DNA of 64,000 nt, from the NCBI GenBank assembly GCA_046155785.1, contig JBJXFR010000191.1, forward strand, positions 7,925-71,924, in the 5' to 3' direction. Both the position numbers and the translations under genes were made by a program. The notes below the pieces were generated by a model. That model saw only the letters and a program-made list of their open reading frames with translations. It had not been told where the DNA came from and ran no database searches. Below are positions 9,488 to 64,000 of the stretch, piece after piece (within the stretch, counting starts at the first letter, position 1; each line of letters starts with the position of its first letter). Source of the stretch: Blastocatellia bacterium (GTDB lineage Bacteria > Acidobacteriota > Blastocatellia > RBC074).

Positions 9488-11103
9488 TGGAAAACATTTT
9501 CTTCCACAAAGCCACACCAAGAAGACACGAAGAAAAACACAAACAGCCTGGGCTTTGGTTTCTGACGGCGTTGCTGTTTCTGCACGCGGCAACTTTTCTG
9601 GCGCAGTTGCCGACGATTTACGAATTCGCCAACTTCGTCTTCTTCGACCCCGGAGTCACGCTTCGCACAGACAAATTACTGGAACAGGGTTACGTGCCGA
9701 CCGTTGATTTTGGTTATCCGTACAGCCTGTTGCCGCTGATTCTTGGCCGAGCCTTTTTCGCATTGACTAGCCGAACTCCCGCCGCTTACATCCTGTTTAT
9801 GTTTCTGGCCGAAGCCGCCGTGCTAATTGGGCTGTGGCGACTGGCCAAGAACTTCGGTTGGTTGATTGCTGTATTTGTGCTGGCGGCAATTCCGCACGCA
9901 ATCATTCCGGTCTACGTTCACCTGACTCATCCGCTGGAAGCCGCGCTGATCGTTCACACCATCGCCGACCTTGCCGTTGGCCGCAGAGCCAGAGCTTTGG
10001 CAATTGCGACTGTTTGCCTGTTTGTGAAACCGGCGATGGCCTACGTCTTGGGCTTTCTGATTCTGGCGCTGGCAATCTTGCAACTGCTTCGTCAGCATGA
10101 AAACCTGAAATCGTTCTTCTACTTTCTTCGACCAGCCATCATCACCGGAGCCGCTTGCCTGACAATTTCATCGGCGTACTTCGGTCTGATTCCAACGATC
10201 AGCGCGCTGATTCCTACCAACGGCGCTCAAAGTTACAAAGCGCTTGGCTTCGGCTTTTTCGCCAACGGCAAAACCTTCTGGCTGCCAAAGCTGGGCAGCG
10301 CCACTCAATTCGCCCAATACTATGCAACGACTCCCGCCGGTTTCTGGATCATCTGCACTCTGCTGATTGCCGCCTTCGGCTTATTGTCGTTATGGAATTC
10401 AATCCAACCTCTCTGCGCTCCCTCTGCGTTCTTTGCGCCTCTGCGGTTGAAAAAGCTTTGTGGAGTTTTATTTTCGAGTCACTCCTTCGTGTCTTCTTCG
10501 TGTGACTTCGTGGAAGAAAAATCCGAGACTTTGATCGTTATTGCCGTCTGCCATTTCACCTTTCTCTTCACGTTCTTCGGCTGGCCGGGTTCGTGGACGT
10601 ATTACTCTTCATTGCTGGTGGCTGGCACGGCTTTAGGTTTGGCGACGTTTCGAGTTCGCCCCGCGCTAATCTTGGCAATGATTCTGATTGCGCTGGCTGG
10701 TAACTTCGAACGTTACCAAATCACAGCCAACGCCTGGAAATGGATGAAGCGCAGCCCTGAATCCGCAGGGCTGTGGGCTTTCCAAAACCAACGCGACGAA
10801 TGGAATCACGCTCGCGCGCTAGCAGGCGACCGACGGATTTTCTACTTCAACAACGGTTGCGCTGAGCTGTTGTACCCAAACATAGATTCGCCCGTCAGCT
10901 TCTTCCTTTCGCCTGACCAGCAAGCGCCAATCGAATTCGACCGCATACGCCAACAACTGGACCAAGCCACCATCGTCGTCACATTCAATCAAGCCACAGT
11001 CCTTGATCCCTGGAACTGGCCAGAGTTCGCCGCCCAACGCGAAAAGTTTGAAGAAACCTGGCAAGGGGTGTATGTAACAGTTCACGAACGCAAACGGCAG
11101 TAA
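9487..11103 (+). CDS. polytopic integral membrane protein (function unknown, glycosyltransferase-C-like topology)
   Basis: 538 aa with many hydrophobic helices. Its ATG overlaps the DUF1501 stop (TGATG). The first ~20 codons and an internal 36-codon loop are encoded by dispersed repeat modules, so the true start could be the downstream TTG near 9571. Confidence 0.6.
   Translation: MENIFFHKATPRRHEEKHKQPGLWFLTALLFLHAATFLAQLPTIYEFANFVFFDPGVTLRTDKLLEQGYVPTVDFGYPYSLLPLILGRAFFALTSRTPAAYILFMFLAEAAVLIGLWRLAKNFGWLIAVFVLAAIPHAIIPVYVHLTHPLEAALIVHTIADLAVGRRARALAIATVCLFVKPAMAYVLGFLILALAILQLLRQHENLKSFFYFLRPAIITGAACLTISSAYFGLIPTISALIPTNGAQSYKALGFGFFANGKTFWLPKLGSATQFAQYYATTPAGFWIICTLLIAAFGLLSLWNSIQPLCAPSAFFAPLRLKKLCGVLFSSHSFVSSSCDFVEEKSETLIVIAVCHFTFLFTFFGWPGSWTYYSSLLVAGTALGLATFRVRPALILAMILIALAGNFERYQITANAWKWMKRSPESAGLWAFQNQRDEWNHARALAGDRRIFYFNNGCAELLYPNIDSPVSFFLSPDQQAPIEFDRIRQQLDQATIVVTFNQATVLDPWNWPEFAAQREKFEETWQGVYVTVHERKRQ
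9502..9543. repeat. CACGAAG-type repeat module (module A) copy
   Basis: TTCCACAAAGCCACACCAAGAAGACACGAAGAAAAACAC closely matches 30099-30135 (TCCACGAAGCCACACGAAGAAAACACGAAG). Confidence 0.7.
10409..10516. repeat. composite repeat (module C then module A) lying in frame inside a CDS
   Basis: CTCTCTGCGCTCCCTCTGCGTTCTTTGCGCCTCTGCGGTT matches 18727-18757. CCTTCGTGTCTTCTTCGTGTGACTTCGTGGAAG matches 27625-27644 and 30250-30268. The span is about 108 nt, or 36 codons. Confidence 0.75.
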
Positions 11104-57452: not shown

Positions 57453-57692
57453 TTTTCAAGCTCTCAATTGACGGTCTTCTGGCGCAACCGTATGATGCCC
57501 GCGCTCACTGGCCTTACCTCATATCTTGCAGCGTCACTCTTGTTCATCACCGCTGCGTAACACGTTCGTTTTCCGATGGTTATGGACGAGGAGGTAAGTA
57601 CGAATCTGGGATTTTTGGGTTACAGGCCGCCGAAAAATTCTCAACCTCAAATGGCCTTGTTTCCTTCCCGCAAATCTGAAAGGAGTCCACAC

Positions 57693-60600
57693 GTGAATAA
57701 AAGAGTTCTGTCCTTAGTAGCTGTGCTGTGTCTGCTGACATTGCCACTATTACTACCAACAACTTCAACTTATGCGAAAAAGCTGCTGACCAGTTTGGTT
57801 CCGGCGAAACTTGCCCCAACTGCCGCAGCTCAAAATTCTCCGTGGCCATCGTTGCCCGATCAGTTGACTCGATACAAAGTCCAGCCGGGCAGCGCGTTGG
57901 AACAATTGATCAAAGACAACCAGCAGTTCGGAATGCTTCGCCCGGATGAAGCCAGCGACCTGCGCGGATTGCCGCCTTGGATCAGAGTTTGGTGGCGCAA
58001 AGCGCATCCGGAACTGGTTTATTCCGCGACTGATCCGACCGGCGGGTATCCGCTGGTACTGAAAGAAGTCGTCGAATGGATGGAGCATCATCAGGATTTA
58101 AAACCTGCTCCGGCTCCACCGTCTGTGCCTCCGCCGCCCAAAGGGCCAAACAGCCCTGACGCAACCATCACAGGCGAACAACGGATTTCCGGCGCGCAAA
58201 CCACGCCGCGCAGCGAATCAGATATTCGCGTCAATTATTTCGATCCGACAAAAATCATAAGCGGGTCAAACGCCATTACCAGCGGTGGGCATCAGGCGAT
58301 GTTTTATTCCACAGACAGCGGAGCTACCTGGGGACAAACTTCGTTGCCCTTCACCGGCAGTGATGGTTTTCATTCCGACCCGACAGTGGATTGGACTTCG
58401 GACGGACGCGGCTGGTCGTCAACCCTCGGAATTCAAGGCAGCACTCTGCGTTTGAGAAATTACTTCACGACAGACAACGGCGCGAACTGGACGTTTGAAG
58501 ACACGCCTTCCGACGCTCAAACCAGTGTAGACAAACAATGGGTTTGGGTAGATCACAATGCGGCTTCACCGTTTTTCAACCAGCAGTACGCCATTTGGCA
58601 CAATGGCACACCCGCATTCGTCAGCTTTCGCACAGCCGGAGCGGGCGGAGTCTGGTCAGCACCGTTGCAAATCACCGGAGCGGAAAGCACCGGAACAGCA
58701 ATCGGTTCCGACATCAAAACCAACAGTGACGGACACGTTTTCGCCTTTTGGCCGACCACAGGCAACCGCCGCATCTTCGTTTCAAAATCAACCAACGGCG
58801 GCACGTCTTACGGAACGCCGGTTCAAATCGCCACGACCTTTGACGGTTTCGACATCGGAGTTCCTTCGTTCAACGGACGTCGCGCGCTGATTTACACGGC
58901 ATCGGCGGCTTACAAAACTCCGTCGAAAAATCTGGTTTACACCACGTGGACGGATTTAAGTGGTGATGCCGGGTGTACCGCCGCGGCAAACGAGCCGGGA
59001 GCGAACGTCGCTTCAACCTGCAAAACGCGCATCTGGTTTTCGCGTTCGACCGACGGCGGAGCCACCTGGTCAACTCCGGTCAAAATCAACAATCAGGCTG
59101 GCTTGAACGATCAATTCAATCAGGCTTTGGTGGTTGACGAAACAACCGGCGCGCTGGCGTTGATGTATTACGACACTGTCGCCGACGCCGGGCGAAAAAA
59201 GGTTCACGTTTACTATCAAGGTTCGTTCGATGACGGCGTGAACTGGTCTGCGCCAATGCAAGTAACCACGGCGCAAACCGATGAAACCGTTGCCGGAGCC
59301 GACAGCGGCAACCAGTTCGGCGATTACAACGCATTGTCAGGTTACGCTGGAATCTTCTTCCCTTCGTGGACTGACCGCCGCAACAACGCCCGTGAAGAAA
59401 TCTGGACAGCCAAGATCAGCGATCAGGCCTGCACCACTCCCGGAGTTCCAACCGGAACCGCTGCTTCGGCAACTGCGGCCAACCAAATCACGGTGACGTG
59501 GTCGGATGGGGCGCCGTCGTCTGCCAAGTACAACGTTTACAGAGCCGTCGGGACTTGCGCTTCGCCGGGCGCGTTTACTCTGGTGGCGTCGAACGTCATG
59601 GCCACGACTTACGTGGACACCATGGTTTCAGGCGGCACGACCTATTCGTACAAAATCACTGGCAAGGATGTGACTGGTAATTGCGAATCGGCTCAATCCA
59701 CTTGCGGTCAGGCAACAGCAACCGGCGTTTGTAACTTGCCGCCGACTTTTGCCGGATTGACCAGCGTCACCAACGCCGCCTTGGCCAATTGCACGCTCAA
59801 TCTGGCTTGGTCAGCAGCGACTGCAAATTGCGCGGGGCCGGTGACTTACACCGTTTACCGCGCAACGACTGCGGGCTTCACTCCCGGAGTCGGAAACCAG
59901 ATTGCCACCGGATTAGCCGGAACCAGTTACACAGACACTGGCGCTTTGATGAACGGCATCAGGTATTACTACGTCGTTCGCTCAACCGACGGGTCGAACT
60001 CTGCAACCGACACCAACACTGTCGAACGCAGCGGGGTGCCGTCTGGCCCGGTGACTTTGAGCACGTTGACCGAAACCTTTGAAGGCGCATTAAGCGGCGG
60101 CGGTTTCGACAACGCAGGCTGGACTCATCAGGCATTGACCGGAGCCGTTGACTGGGTTTGGTCAACCGCGCAATCACAAACTCCAACGCACGGTTGGCAT
60201 TCAGCCAGCCAGATTACTGTGTCGGATCGCGTGTTGGTTTCGCCAGTCTTCGGAGCTAACGCCGGCACGACTTTGAGTTTCTGGCACACTTTCGATTTTG
60301 AAACCAACGCCGGTGGAACGACATTTTTCGATGGCGGAACGTTGGAGTATTCCACCAACGCCGGAGCGAATTGGACTGTCATGCCGGACGCCAACTTCAC
60401 GGCGGGCGGATTCAACGCGACAATCAGCACAGGCTTCAGCAATCCGATTGGAGGTTTGCGCGCCTGGGGCGGAGGAGCCATCGGAGCAATGACTCAGGTG
60501 ACGGTCAATCTTGCTTCGCTGGCCGGAAACAACGTTATGCTGCGTTGGCGCGAAGGCGACGACAGCAGCGCGGCAGACCCAGGCTGGTTTGTTGATTCCG

Positions 60601-62066
60601 TGACCATCGCCAACGCTGGCGTGGCGGCTTCCTGCGTAACAACTGGCGGATGCTCGCTGACGATCAATCCGGCTACCTTGCCGGGCGGATTTGTCGGCAC
60701 GCTTTACAGCCAAACGCTGACGGCATCCGGCGGAACGGGCCCATACACCTTCTCGGTGGATCTATCCGGTCCGTTGCCTGCGTCACTCAATCTGGTCGGT
60801 GACACCATCACCGGAACTCCGTCAGCGACGGGCGTCCATAACGTTGTCATCAAAGTCACAGACACCAGCAACAACTGTATGACTACGCGGAGTTACACGC
60901 TGGTTATCAGCGGAACGGGTTTGATGTATTACCCGATAACGCCTTGCCGGTTGTTGGATACGCGTAACTCAACAACAATCACCGGCGGAACGTCGTTGAC
61001 ACAAGCGGTTACTGGCATCTGCGGCATTCCGGTCGGGGCGCAAGCCGTGGTTGGAAACGTCACCACAGTTTCTCCTGTGTCAGCGGGTCATTTGACCATT
61101 TACCCGGGCGACGGAACGTTGCCTACATCCGCCAATTCCAATTTCCAGGCGAATCAAATAACCAATAACCTTTTCACTTCCAAGTTGGGTGTTGCCAACG
61201 GAGATATAAAAATCTACGTGCATCGCACAACTCACGTGGTTGTGGATGTAAACGGGTATTACGCAGCGCCCGGCGCAAATGCGTTGTATTTCCACCCGTT
61301 GTCTACTCCGATTAGGTTGATGGATACGCGCGTAGGATTTACCGCTTGTGTAACCCCCGGAGCGGCATTGGCTGCAAACTCCAACACCGTTGTTCAGGGT
61401 GCGACCACTTGCAGCGGCATCACGATTCCCGCCACCGCCAGAGCTTTGGTTGGAAACGCAACCACTGTCGGCCCAACGGGCGCAGGCTGGATTACGCTCT
61501 ATCCTGGTGATCTTGCTTCGCCACCGCTTGTCGCCAGCGGCAACTACACATCGGGGCAAACCCTGAATTCGCAATTCTATGTTGGCTTGTCTCCAAGCGG
61601 ACAGTTCAAACTGTTCACCACACAGCAAACCAACATGGTGATTGACATCAGCGGGTACTTCAGCACGGAACCGATGGACGCCAATGGGCTGGGATTGTTG
61701 TTTGCTCCAATGACGCCCAATCGGTTGCTGGAAACTCGTGTTGGCTTTAGCGGATGCACGACTCCGGGAGCGGCGCTGGCTGCGGCCTCGGAAACTTCGC
61801 AAGCCGCGCGTGGCTTCTGCACGATTCCGGCAACGGCGCAAGCCATAGTCGGAAACGCGACGGTCGTGACTCCAGCGGCTCTAGGCTTCCTGACCTTGTG
61901 GCCAAGCGATGTCACCAGACCGACTACCGCCAATTCCAACTGGGTAGCCAATGACGTTTTCAATCGCCACTTCACGGTCAAACTGGGTGGGGATGGAGCT
62001 TTCAAAATCTATCCGCAAACCGCAACCCACCTGGTGATTGATGTTTCCGGTGCGTTCGTGCCCTAA
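57693..62066 (+). CDS. large secreted multidomain protein: BNR/Asp-box propeller, 2x FN3, lectin-like region, He_PIG Ig domain, 3x unnamed C-terminal repeat
   Basis: The start is GTG 57693, preceded by AGGAG (57681-57685), followed by a signal peptide. Asp-boxes are STDSGATW, TTDNGANW, STNGGTSY, STDGGATW and FDDGVNW. FN3-like segments follow, then LPGGFVGTLYSQTLTASGGTGPYTF. Three repeats of about 125 aa occupy 60921-62063. Confidence 0.8.
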   Translation: MNKRVLSLVAVLCLLTLPLLLPTTSTYAKKLLTSLVPAKLAPTAAAQNSPWPSLPDQLTRYKVQPGSALEQLIKDNQQFGMLRPDEASDLRGLPPWIRVWWRKAHPELVYSATDPTGGYPLVLKEVVEWMEHHQDLKPAPAPPSVPPPPKGPNSPDATITGEQRISGAQTTPRSESDIRVNYFDPTKIISGSNAITSGGHQAMFYSTDSGATWGQTSLPFTGSDGFHSDPTVDWTSDGRGWSSTLGIQGSTLRLRNYFTTDNGANWTFEDTPSDAQTSVDKQWVWVDHNAASPFFNQQYAIWHNGTPAFVSFRTAGAGGVWSAPLQITGAESTGTAIGSDIKTNSDGHVFAFWPTTGNRRIFVSKSTNGGTSYGTPVQIATTFDGFDIGVPSFNGRRALIYTASAAYKTPSKNLVYTTWTDLSGDAGCTAAANEPGANVASTCKTRIWFSRSTDGGATWSTPVKINNQAGLNDQFNQALVVDETTGALALMYYDTVADAGRKKVHVYYQGSFDDGVNWSAPMQVTTAQTDETVAGADSGNQFGDYNALSGYAGIFFPSWTDRRNNAREEIWTAKISDQACTTPGVPTGTAASATAANQITVTWSDGAPSSAKYNVYRAVGTCASPGAFTLVASNVMATTYVDTMVSGGTTYSYKITGKDVTGNCESAQSTCGQATATGVCNLPPTFAGLTSVTNAALANCTLNLAWSAATANCAGPVTYTVYRATTAGFTPGVGNQIATGLAGTSYTDTGALMNGIRYYYVVRSTDGSNSATDTNTVERSGVPSGPVTLSTLTETFEGALSGGGFDNAGWTHQALTGAVDWVWSTAQSQTPTHGWHSASQITVSDRVLVSPVFGANAGTTLSFWHTFDFETNAGGTTFFDGGTLEYSTNAGANWTVMPDANFTAGGFNATISTGFSNPIGGLRAWGGGAIGAMTQVTVNLASLAGNNVMLRWREGDDSSAADPGWFVDSVTIANAGVAASCVTTGGCSLTINPATLPGGFVGTLYSQTLTASGGTGPYTFSVDLSGPLPASLNLVGDTITGTPSATGVHNVVIKVTDTSNNCMTTRSYTLVISGTGLMYYPITPCRLLDTRNSTTITGGTSLTQAVTGICGIPVGAQAVVGNVTTVSPVSAGHLTIYPGDGTLPTSANSNFQANQITNNLFTSKLGVANGDIKIYVHRTTHVVVDVNGYYAAPGANALYFHPLSTPIRLMDTRVGFTACVTPGAALAANSNTVVQGATTCSGITIPATARALVGNATTVGPTGAGWITLYPGDLASPPLVASGNYTSGQTLNSQFYVGLSPSGQFKLFTTQQTNMVIDISGYFSTEPMDANGLGLLFAPMTPNRLLETRVGFSGCTTPGAALAAASETSQAARGFCTIPATAQAIVGNATVVTPAALGFLTLWPSDVTRPTTANSNWVANDVFNRHFTVKLGGDGAFKIYPQTATHLVIDVSGAFVP

Positions 62067-62091
62067 ACTCAGGTTGAGTCACGACGTTGAA

Positions 62092-62125
62092 ATGTGTCGT
62101 GGGATTCCATCCCGCGACACATTTT
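62092..62125 (+). terminator. hairpin (GTGTCG-GGG family) after the large gene
   Basis: ATGTGTCGTGGGA-TTCCA-TCCCGCGACACAT is followed by TTT, 25 nt after the stop. Confidence 0.6.
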
Positions 62126-62160
62126 CCCGGCATACCGCGCAAGCGTCACCACATAATTTA

Positions 62161-62196
62161 AAGGGCAAGGCTTCTTCCGAAACCTTGCCCTTTTTG
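62161..62196 (+). terminator. rho-independent terminator
   Basis: AAGGGCAAGG-loop-CCTTGCCCTT overlaps and runs into TTTTTG. Confidence 0.75.
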
Positions 62197-62199
62197 TAA

Positions 62200-62414
62200 T
62201 TGCTCAGCCCCATTCAGATGCGTGAGCGATGGTTAAGAAGAGGGCGAAAAAGGCAGGCATCACGGCGGAGATTCCGCCGCATTCCTTCCGGGCGACGGGA
62301 ATCACGGCTTATCTTGAGAACGGCGGAACGGTTGAGCCTGCCCGTAACATTGAAGGTTTCATTACGGCGAGAGCCGTCACTTCGGTACATCATCAAGGTT
62401 GTAGTACCGAATAG
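62200..62414 (+). pseudogene. tyrosine recombinase (phage integrase family) C-terminal remnant
   Basis: The fragment reads ..MVKKRAKKAGITAEIPPHSFRATGITAYLENGG.. . That is the conserved HxxR box region only. An in-frame TGA lies immediately upstream and a frame change lies before it. There is no N-terminal domain and no recognisable catalytic Tyr segment. Confidence 0.7.
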
Positions 62415-62619
62415 TACTGAAATCAGGGATCCCCAGCCAGATTCCTTCAAAGAAAAGTGTCCCTTGAACTTCAAACTCATCTTTCATAAAGAGTAAGACT
62501 TTCATCCCATTTTCTAAAGTTTCCCCATATTGCTTGATGCTTTCAAGCGAACCGATTGTGTTCAAGCACACACGGCCTTGTTCATCACAGGAGTTAAAAT
62601 CAACATAGAGCTTAACCAT
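62377..62619 (-). CDS. hypothetical small protein (cassette gene D)
   Basis: 80 aa in AT-rich DNA, 9 nt downstream of gene C. Its 3' end overlaps the integrase remnant. Confidence 0.5.
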   Translation of the reverse strand: MVKLYVDFNSCDEQGRVCLNTIGSLESIKQYGETLENGMKVLLFMKDEFEVQGTLFFEGIWLGIPDFSTIRYYNLDDVPK

Positions 62620-62628
62620 CTAATTCTT

Positions 62629-63159
62629 TCATACGTTTCTGCTTATAGATAAAAAAGAAAACCAATCTCTCTTTTTTAATGCACTGCGCGGCAGCTCTAA
62701 AGAGTGACTCACATCTTGTAAATCGTTCGATGATAGCTCCTTTGCGGCAATCAGTCTCTCTAATCTGTTTCCCTGCCAAGCGGCTATAATCTCATACTCC
62801 CCTCGCTGACTCAGTACCTCATTGATTTTGTCTTCTACCATTACTCGATCCTCTTTCAAACTAAACTTCCAGCTTGGAAACCATACTGGCCATGATGGAG
62901 CAGGTAAAGACACGCTAAAAGCTTTGATGATTACTTCAAATGAGTCATATGGGAGGGGAGCAAGCGTAAATACACGTACATCAGCGTCATCTCGTTCATC
63001 CCAATCAATCAAATCAAAGTAAAATACTTTTTGGCATTTAGAGCACTGTAAGATCCCTTCCGTAATGCCGTCATAGCTATCCAAGCCTATAACTCTACTG
63101 CCAGTAGAAAATAAACAATGACTCTCAAGAGGCAAATCACCAGTATTGTTTTCTTTCAT
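62629..63159 (-). CDS. hypothetical protein (cassette gene C, candidate immunity/partner)
   Basis: 176 aa. Its ATG directly abuts the stop of gene B. I recognised no family. Confidence 0.55.
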   Translation of the reverse strand: MKENNTGDLPLESHCLFSTGSRVIGLDSYDGITEGILQCSKCQKVFYFDLIDWDERDDADVRVFTLAPLPYDSFEVIIKAFSVSLPAPSWPVWFPSWKFSLKEDRVMVEDKINEVLSQRGEYEIIAAWQGNRLERLIAAKELSSNDLQDVSHSLELPRSALKKRDWFSFLSISRNV

Positions 63160-63669
63160 TTATTTTTTAAACCCCCAAAGATCATTCCAGCGTTTAGCAT
63201 CTGCTTGTGATACAGGATGAGGTAGCTCAACAGTTCGATGACGCTTATCTCTACCCGGAGTGTTATGAACTGGAAAAGCCTTTTCAACAACTTTACGCGG
63301 TAACGCTCTGAAATCTGAGCGCGTGGGCGGTCCAGCCGTTGTACTAACTCCATGAACCAATTCGCCCGGATTTGCCAATGACTCTTCTGATAATCGCTCT
63401 AACCGGTTAGCTGACTCAGGGCCGCTGGCGTATCTTATCAGTATTTCTTCATCATCATCATCATCATCATCATCCTCATCAGGCTCAGCCGGAACCGGGC
63501 TTACGAATGTTTTTATGGCTGTTGCAACTGCCGCAGCAATTAAGGTTTTAACTAGAATTTGTTTTGCAACAGTAGAAGCCGCTCCAACAGTTGCTCCTGC
63601 TCCCGTTTGTGGAGCAACGAGCGCAATAACCGGCACTCCTATGTAAGCCGCAACCATAGCGCCAGCCAT
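63160..63669 (-). CDS. hypothetical protein with Gly/Ala-rich hydrophobic N-terminus, poly-Asp linker and basic C-terminal domain (cassette gene B, candidate effector)
   Basis: 169 aa. The N-terminus MAGAMVAAYIGVPVIALVAPQTGAGATVGAAS...LIAAAVATAIKTF forms two hydrophobic segments. The linker is EPDEDDDDDDDDEE. The C-terminal domain of about 95 aa is rich in K, R and H. Confidence 0.55.
   Translation of the reverse strand: MAGAMVAAYIGVPVIALVAPQTGAGATVGAASTVAKQILVKTLIAAAVATAIKTFVSPVPAEPDEDDDDDDDDEEILIRYASGPESANRLERLSEESLANPGELVHGVSTTAGPPTRSDFRALPRKVVEKAFPVHNTPGRDKRHRTVELPHPVSQADAKRWNDLWGFKK
63451..63474. repeat. (ATC)8 / (GAT)8 trinucleotide microsatellite inside gene B
   Basis: Eight perfect ATC units on the plus strand encode Asp8 on the minus strand. 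Confidence 0.95.
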
Positions 63670-63836
63670 TTTATCCGCTGCATGATGCCTGATAACATGG
63701 ATCTCCCCATCCGCGCCTAACTCTGCATATTCTTTGTTGTAAGTTGGTGAGCAAAATTATTTCGGTATTTTGAATGCTGATGTCCAATAAACTCAGGATT
63801 GGCAGCAATTCTTTATGCCATGTTAATTTTGGTCAC

Positions 63837-64000
63837 CTACTTATATTTTTTGTAATCCTCCCACCCCGGTTCATTAGGGCCAGGTCCATGCATTGCTCCC
63901 CAAGCCAACCCATAACTTCCTGCCCCTCCAATGCATCCACAGTCAGTACTATAACCCCCCATAAGACCTGCAGTTGCAGTCCCACCCGCCACACCTAATC
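63837..64000 (-). CDS. 3' end of a Gly-rich ORF running off the window (partial)
   Basis: Hand translation of the minus strand gives ..LGVAGGTATAGLMGGYSTDCGCIGGAGSYGLAWGAMHGPGPNEPGWEDYKKYK, ending at stop 63839-63837. It is absent from the track because no start codon lies inside the window. Confidence 0.4.
   Translation of the reverse strand, partial: LGVAGGTATAGLMGGYSTDCGCIGGAGSYGLAWGAMHGPGPNEPGWEDYKKYK

Follow-up and report, generated by a model that had tools for sequence, protein, structure and literature searches.

Polymorphic-toxin cassettes occur as toxin-immunity pairs (Zhang et al. 2012, PMC3482391), and orphan rhs-CT/rhsI pairs, in which the orphan of one strain is the main toxin of another (PMC3967940), are known from enterobacteria such as Salmonella (STM0292), Dickeya and Escherichia coli (PMC3967940, PMC3150448). 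Expression of C-terminal (CT) toxin and immunity protein without the delivery part has also been described (2020, PMC7043789), and the rAID systems of Bacteroidales are defined by a tyrosine recombinase together with co-oriented, low-GC orphan immunity genes (PMC12247911). Here, the last ~1.8 kb of a 64,000-nucleotide stretch from a Blastocatellia bacterium (contig JBJXFR010000191.1, positions 7,925 to 71,924, forward strand; the whole stretch is called the window) is compared with these systems. This AT-rich patch holds three small genes, here named B, C and D, beside a tyrosine-recombinase remnant, and is interpreted, with a probability of roughly 0.8, as the end, visible here, of an RHS-type polymorphic-toxin island acquired by horizontal transfer. 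A sequence-only reading of the same DNA had suggested that a recombinase scar adjoins a polymorphic-toxin/immunity cassette, and this suggestion is supported by homology of B to RHS tips, by linkage of C-family genes to the toxin domain in 22 of 26 distinct loci, and by the occurrence of D in RHS immunity arrays. The features of the patch, in window coordinates, are as follows.

62083-62199, plus strand: hairpin pair ending the convergent host gene (hairpins 62083-62147 and 62160-62193, with a T-run after the second)
62226-62345, plus strand: tyrosine-recombinase remnant MVKKRAKKAGITAEIPPHSFRATGITAYLENGGTVEPAR, about 39 codons, antisense to the cassette array
62346-63720, minus strand: low-GC block with B, C and D, GC 0.436, collinear with the array of locus L035
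62377-62619, minus strand: gene D, an open reading frame (ORF) of 80 residues, annotated as hypothetical protein ACKVZH_16805
62629-63159, minus strand: gene C, ORF of 176 residues, hypothetical protein ACKVZH_16810
63160-63669, minus strand: gene B, ORF of 169 residues, hypothetical protein ACKVZH_16815
63163-63447, minus strand: predicted toxin domain B-CT (B residues 75-169), basic
63442-63669, minus strand: B residues 1-76, a pre-toxin region common to full RHS proteins, with two Gly/Ala-rich hydrophobic segments and a poly-Asp/Glu linker
63670-63741, minus strand: 24 codons of RHS pre-toxin sequence 5′ of the B ATG, cut off by a stop codon at 63757-63759
63837-64000, minus strand, as B: 3′ end of a Gly-rich, Cys-containing ORF that ends in GGTATAGLMGGYSTDCGCIGGAGSYGLAWGAMHGPGPNEPGWEDYKKYK before its stop codon and leaves the window at its other end

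The first homology search with B showed that its final ~95 residues are also found at the C-terminus of proteins whose ends are of RHS type, and B-CT lies at the extreme C-terminus of RHS/YD-repeat proteins in L036, L015, L034, L008, L014 and L032 (related loci are designated by L and a number). On L036, an ENA metagenome contig, a protein of more than 786 residues consists of an RHS body, the shell end (NRYSYVMNRPLSLVDPSGEYW), ~60 more residues and then B-like sequence, ending in frame with ~195 residues that are 75% identical to B and its 24 upstream codons (residues 596-785 matching window 63741-63163 by tblastn). The tip of the L008 RHS protein is 26% identical and aligns along all of B (E 5e-13), spanning the Met, the hydrophobic segments, the acidic linker and the terminal domain. 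The RHS cores of L008 and L036 are 84% identical in nucleotide sequence up to L036 nucleotide 1627, just past DPSGEYW, while the tips beyond have diverged (26%); a shared core that splits after DPSGE is a textbook hallmark of polymorphic toxins (PMC3967940, PMC3482391). A hidden Markov model (HMM) of B-CT additionally matches the ends of RHS proteins in metagenome-assembled genomes (MAGs) of Bryobacterales (L015) and Acidimicrobiales (L034), as well as the end of a Tc-like protein of 2543 residues, encoded in a deltaproteobacterial MAG (L032), whose domains are SpvB, TcdB_toxin_midN, FG-GAP and RHS. Another Blastocatellia MAG (L014) carries an array of RHS-tip cassettes in which one B-like domain is 66% identical. 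The presence of B-CT on varied carriers (RHS proteins, an SpvB-TcdB-RHS fusion and a weak PT-HINT match), the co-varying immunity gene and the extra immunity genes downstream are all reminiscent of the polymorphic toxins, including the hypervariable regions of TcB/TcC (ABC toxin) proteins (PMC3482391). In contrast to these, B-CT matches none of the Tox- or Ntox-type families, and most of its best matches are stand-alone proteins of ~97 residues.

In the window itself, the stop codon at 63757-63759 lies 29 codons before the B ATG, RHS homology begins only at 63741, and tblastn detected no RHS core anywhere in the 64 kb (the source contig of 77,377 nucleotides, which carries ACKVZH_16805 to ACKVZH_16815 with protein accessions MFN0110517 and MFN0110518, runs 13 kb further). 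B is therefore a beheaded, orphan toxin tip, and the segment 63670-63741 is the scar of its decapitation. A continuation of RHS homology past 63741 by way of a frameshift was suggested by eye, and tblastn gave it no support. As in the orphan rhs-CT/rhsI pairs of enterobacteria, a displaced RHS tip is followed by an immunity gene, the same tip ends a full-length RHS gene elsewhere (L036), the boundary falls at DPxG and the composition is foreign. B differs from those orphans in lacking core and DPxG sequence and in having its own ATG start; moreover, the B and C families are unrelated to any described Rhs-CT/RhsI pair, and the host is an acidobacterium (Blastocatellia).

The architecture of B agrees with the earlier description of two hydrophobic Gly/Ala-rich segments, an acidic linker and a basic C-terminal domain of about 95 residues: the maximum Kyte-Doolittle hydropathy of the head is 2.13, the Asp/Glu linker has a net charge of −13, and the tail has a pI of 9.9. 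The head segments and the acidic linker are conserved across the window, L035, L036 and L008, and hydrophobic stretches of a similar kind occur ahead of the toxin domain in several further forms, either fused or short. The start Met of B is likewise conserved in L036, L035 and L008 as an internal Met of the RHS tip. A toxic function of the hydrophobic head had also been considered, but 94 of the 123 best toxin-domain homologues are stand-alone proteins of 110 residues or fewer, leaving no room for a head before a domain of ~95 residues. Since the domain stands alone in these best matches, the toxic activity probably does not reside in the head, which may instead help the delivered tip to cross a membrane.

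Gene C encodes an acidic protein (pI 4.8). In the loci examined first, the gene that abuts the toxin domain is 30-37% identical to C, and an exhaustive search for C returned 467 representative clusters at E <= 1e-3. The 22 loci in which the C-family HMM finds a gene directly 3′ of the toxin domain span at least eight named bacterial lineages, a count that takes in the diverged L008 pair (hhalign probability 94.7%); the exceptions are L014, L027, L034 and, with a weak match, L033. The two families are charge-matched: the median pI is 9.3 among toxin-domain proteins and 4.9 among C-family proteins. C gave no match in Pfam, NCBIfam, PADLOC or PHROGs and contains no recognizable DNA-binding or antitoxin domain. 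Its AlphaFold2 model has a predicted local distance difference test score (pLDDT) of 91.6, and a Foldseek search of the PDB with this model returned nothing significant (best E 0.4). By gene linkage, C is the putative cognate immunity protein of the B toxin domain.

Gene D also encodes an acidic protein (pI 4.4), for which searches of Pfam, NCBIfam, PADLOC and PHROGs yielded only noise; a relationship to C was considered and rejected (hhalign probability 0.14%). Twelve homologues of D were found, all of ~80 residues and 64-78% identical, and each of them sits downstream of RHS genes within a tight array of small genes on one strand, alongside DUF5071 genes. In L012 and L013, D follows 5 nucleotides after a 97-residue gene, and in L037 it follows 5 nucleotides after a truncated PA14/YD-like protein; the proteins before D in these three loci share the tail …TVVTxDPLPIEQAKKISAVFKP…, which, judging from this shared sequence, probably marks the toxin to which D belongs. 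That toxin is absent from the window, L035 and L008, and D is accordingly an orphan immunity gene here. The 97-residue gene of L012 looked by eye like a relative of B-CT, a resemblance that hhalign did not support (probability 1.3%, E 0.039, 33 columns). In L037 (8649-10243), the PA14/YD-like protein of 448 residues ends in the last 30 residues of the D-type toxin tail and is followed by D and by fragments of an IS630 transposase; it seems that the front of the carrier protein was joined by a deletion to the extreme end of the toxin tip. DUF5071 (PF16804) genes recur beside D in L008, L010-L012 and L035, downstream of RHS toxin genes, and this recurrence in D arrays suggests that DUF5071 is an immunity-protein family. 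DUF5071 is mentioned by no paper in the literature library that was searched.

The composition and layout of the patch set it apart from the adjoining sequence. GC content falls from ~0.55 to 0.40-0.47 beyond ~62400, and GC at third codon positions (GC3) is 0.30 in B, 0.37 in C and 0.44 in D, as compared to 0.60-0.63 in adjoining genes. All three genes are short, run in the same direction and have a low GC content (0.40-0.48); the first base of C comes right after the B stop codon, and 9 nucleotides separate C from D. The AT-rich shift with its change of gene style, the packed minus-strand operon and the Gly-rich ORF running off the window from 63837, all reported in the sequence-only reading, are thus confirmed, as is the placement of B, C and D outside recognized families, given that Pfam, NCBIfam, PADLOC and PHROGs returned noise only. 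The two terminator hairpins reported after the large neighboring gene are also present, whereas the length given for that gene, 1457 residues, is 1496 when counted from the first ATG. The hairpin pair folds at −56.5 kcal/mol (z-score −5.9, with none of 200 shuffled sequences as stable) and marks the chromosomal side of the island border; a simple terminator scan did not pick up either hairpin 3′ of the 1496-residue gene. This gene (57576-62066, plus strand) has BNR/sialidase-like and Reelin-subrepeat-like Pfam matches and a host-like GC3 of 0.61. An integration-site look-up found no tRNA near the island, and B-CT had no plasmid match. At the other edge, the Gly-rich ORF had no match in Pfam, NCBIfam, PADLOC or PHROGs and no relative among loci L001-L035. 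It is possibly the last gene of a preceding module, and could encode either the immunity protein of that module or a small protein of membrane or bacteriocin-like type.

Ratios of nonsynonymous to synonymous substitution rates (dN/dS) are 0.14-0.26 for B, 0.15-0.23 for C and 0.09-0.13 for D, in comparisons with relatives at dS 0.4-1.5. Because all three have homologues and dN/dS values within 0.09-0.26, B, C and D are real genes and not chance ORFs; they are foreign in composition yet maintained by purifying selection. These values bear directly on the possibility that the patch is decaying junk, left over from an old island and now functionless. In keeping with that, the integrase has lost both of its ends, B is without an RHS body, and the array was seemingly cut by a deletion 31 nucleotides after D relative to L035. 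However, B, C and D are intact and retain the family-invariant residues, and dN/dS is low even against relatives that differ from them by dS 0.5-1.5, so that functionless decay is a very improbable account of the patch.

Comparison with related arrays indicates how the patch may have been assembled. Window positions 63720-62346 are collinear with L035 positions 56-1408 (81.8% nucleotide identity over 1381 nucleotides), and the gene order in L035 is a B-like gene, C, D, DUF5071, a 67-residue gene and the start of a new RHS gene (DUF6531, NHL, TIG). L036 has the order RHS-B, C, antisense integrase fragment and a further RHS cassette, without D. The window looks like an L035-type array that was cut 31 nucleotides after D and joined midway into an integrase remnant which had already been truncated; the terminator of the host gene lies directly beyond this remnant. 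The integrase fragment noted in the sequence-only reading is a genuine remnant with an HxxR box (Pfam Phage_integrase, PF00589, positions 114-145 of 172, E 0.011-0.021), and it holds that box only, the region of the catalytic Tyr being replaced by cassette sequence from 62346. Two other features ascribed to it did not survive. Integrase sequence was found upstream of 62226 in no frame, and the fragment is therefore a plain 5′ truncation with no frame change; integrase homology ends before the D stop codon, and the seeming overlap with D thus results from reading on into unrelated sequence. Positions 62341-62226 are 83.6% identical in nucleotide sequence to L036 2958-3073. The L036 copy is longer (30.2 bits, E 4.6e-7, profile positions 114-165, above the Pfam threshold) and keeps the Tyr, with positions 1-113 gone. 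The two remnants (window 62226-62345, L036 2914-3073) share the 5′ truncation and begin at exactly the same codon (profile position 114), and the DNA outside the shared break differs, being the host terminator in the window and another RHS cassette in L036. The break may be debris that both islands inherited or a favored point of recombination. By the island account, the fragment is what is left of the recombinase that arrived with the island, now dead.

Recombinase sequence next to short, co-oriented, low-GC genes, including the orphan immunity gene D, resembles a rAID, and the patch could accordingly be a recombinase-driven acquired immunity array with a role in defense, B being a toxin remnant carried along. 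The genes (GC 0.40-0.48) adjoin tyrosine-recombinase sequence, and intact tyrosine recombinases stand beside related arrays in two loci. In L014 (5074-7010), two intact recombinases lie in tandem upstream of the B-type RHS cassette array, and in L032 (14637-15431) an intact recombinase, ~34% identical to those of L014, lies ~4 kb downstream of the giant toxin gene. The recombinase in the window, however, is a dead 39-codon fragment that is antisense to the array and downstream of it instead of at its head, and the patch falls outside the definition of a rAID because no intact recombinase heads the array. In addition, B is an intact toxin gene under selection with its apparent cognate immunity gene, so that the array is not limited to immunity genes and D is the only orphan immunity gene in it, and the occurrence of the same truncated integrase in L036 suggests inherited debris as opposed to an active system. 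No conserved intergenic motif turned up, although no systematic search for one was made, and the phylum is a different one. A rAID-like array is on balance unlikely, and an RHS-type toxin island remains the preferred reading of the patch.

A profile search with B-CT returned 559 homologues at E <= 0.01. For B residues 70-169, AlphaFold2 with an input of 122 sequences gave a model with a pLDDT of 90.6 and a predicted template modeling score (pTM) of 0.82, and its predicted topology is β-α-β-β-α-β-β-α. In the numbering of this 100-residue model, which starts at B residue 70, the invariant residues are R10, S17, R20, G38, S40, T68, H75, T77, L80, P83 and N93, and the nearly invariant ones are H37, H66, D72 and E79. 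The distant L008 tip keeps R10, S40, T68, H75, T77 and N93, and has His in place of E79 and Glu in place of H66. Foldseek searches with the model found nothing significant (best E 0.92 in the PDB and 0.099 in BFVD), and sequence-profile searches of the PDB with B-CT and C found nothing below E 0.07. The family corresponds to no Pfam toxin family (Tox- and Ntox-type) and to none in NCBIfam, PADLOC or PHROGs. With the domain basic, the immunity protein acidic and His, Thr, Ser, Arg and Asn conserved, the best guess, held at low confidence, is an enzyme acting on nucleic acid or on a nucleotide phosphate.

The sequence-only reading had mentioned, without asserting it, a faint likeness to R-S-E ADP-ribosyltransferases (ARTs), and B-CT could in that case be a minimal enzyme of this class, using NAD+ to modify protein or nucleic acid. 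The order of conserved residues is indeed compatible: the Arg of strand 1 and the Ser-x-Thr of strand 2 are invariant, the Glu of strand 5 is nearly so, the top PDB match in Foldseek is the mART domain of SdeA, and a viral PARP is among the BFVD matches. Neither match is significant, however (SdeA: E 0.92, template modeling score 0.36, root-mean-square deviation 10.3 Å; viral PARP: E 3.9), no ExE or QxE motif is present, the Glu sitting in T-V-E, and the Glu is not universal, being His in the L008 relative. None of the 122 members scanned had a Pfam match to an ART. At ~95 residues and five strands, B-CT is also smaller than any ART known to us. The likeness to ARTs is thus not borne out at the level of fold or sequence, and membership of that class is highly unlikely.

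A number of observations weigh against the patch being the end of an RHS toxin island. The 13 kb of source contig past the window could hold the main RHS gene, as the negative result for RHS cores covers 64 kb only. B retains no core or DPxG sequence, its homology starting 62 residues past DPSGE, and thus, unlike the classical orphans, it keeps nothing for homologous re-fusion. In L014, the closest genome relative, the B-like tip is followed by a 161-residue ankyrin-repeat gene (10349-10834) with no C homologue, which suggests that immunity to this toxin domain can also be provided in another way, by the ankyrin protein. A promoter search with B gave nothing convincing: the only promoter-like match overlaps its start codon, and such matches are below chance expectation. 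The prevalence of stand-alone homologues that have no delivery domain points the same way. The best-scoring relatives are for the most part 94-110 residues long, have a C-family gene after them and come mainly from Planctomycetota. In five distinct genomes of that phylum (L003/L018, L007/L031, L024, L025 and L030) the pair lies between genes for a class-V aminotransferase (read as serC) and phosphoglycerate dehydrogenase (serA). The flanking proteins are only 60-74% identical between these genomes, which argues that the pair has long been retained at the site, and such pairs, standing alone and at a fixed position, suggest a resident module, toxin-antitoxin-like or domesticated, more than they do a weapon. 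Long retention at one site is unusual for a selfish toxin cassette.

The stand-alone pairs imply that the module can persist with no delivery domain, and the same may apply to B and C in the window. B and C could, in this regard, form an autonomous toxin-antitoxin-like module for addiction or growth control, with B made from its own ATG and C as a labile antidote, such that the pair would stabilize the island or regulate growth and would not depend on delivery. This possibility overlaps with that of an RHS island and need not exclude it. It is consistent with an intact B ORF that has all invariant residues and a dN/dS of 0.14-0.26, with conservation of the B start Met in L036, L035 and L008, and with the fact that most homologues are toxin-plus-C pairs lacking a delivery domain, some of them at the conserved Planctomycetota site. 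Yet C lacks a recognizable DNA-binding or antitoxin domain, neither a promoter nor a clear ribosome-binding site precedes B, and the hydrophobic pre-toxin segment has no obvious use in a purely intracellular toxin. The conserved internal Met and the many stand-alone pairs are also reminiscent of the CT toxin/immunity expression described in 2020 (PMC7043789). An autonomous module is a possible but doubtful explanation of the pair, and RHS ancestry of the island remains the favored one.

If the patch is the end of an RHS toxin island, the full-length relatives of B would carry the tip enclosed in the RHS shell, from which it would be cleaved off and delivered to a competitor to act in the cytoplasm. 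B would be an orphan cassette, an RHS tip minus the shell and the DPxG cleavage site that delivery needs, and C would neutralize its toxin domain by binding. Homology, architecture, linkage of the genes, the shift in composition and purifying selection are observed, and toxicity, neutralization, delivery and enzyme activity are inferred. In the window B would be undeliverable, and it would be either a silent reserve cassette, which could be rejoined to an RHS gene by recombination, or made from its own ATG, forming an addiction (toxin-antitoxin-like) pair with C. D would have a protective role only, because its toxin tip is absent here, and would protect only against neighbors that carry that toxin.

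The type of system is familiar, while two of its protein families, three with D, are undescribed; the finding is accordingly of value for the new families and establishes no new principle. The toxin-domain and C families have members in Acidobacteriota, Planctomycetota, Myxococcota, Verrucomicrobia, Chloroflexi (Dehalococcoidia), Acidimicrobiales, Saccharimonadales and Alphaproteobacteria. The pair would add an uncharacterized warhead and its antidote to the catalog of bacterial contact-dependent weapons, and B-CT and C, with confident models unlike anything solved, offer compact targets in the search for a new toxic activity and a new inhibitor fold. Together, the window, L035, L036 and L008 show the shuffling, beheading and trimming of cassettes in soil bacteria, in which, to our knowledge, Rhs biology has hardly been studied. 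More tentatively, B-CT and C may constitute an undescribed toxin-immunity superfamily with hundreds of members in at least eight lineages, with folds that have no solved relative and a new catalytic arrangement (Arg, Ser, Thr, His-x-Thr, Asn), and which has also been domesticated between serC and serA in Planctomycetota. If this is true, the serC-serA pair would hint at a cellular role for the family beyond warfare.

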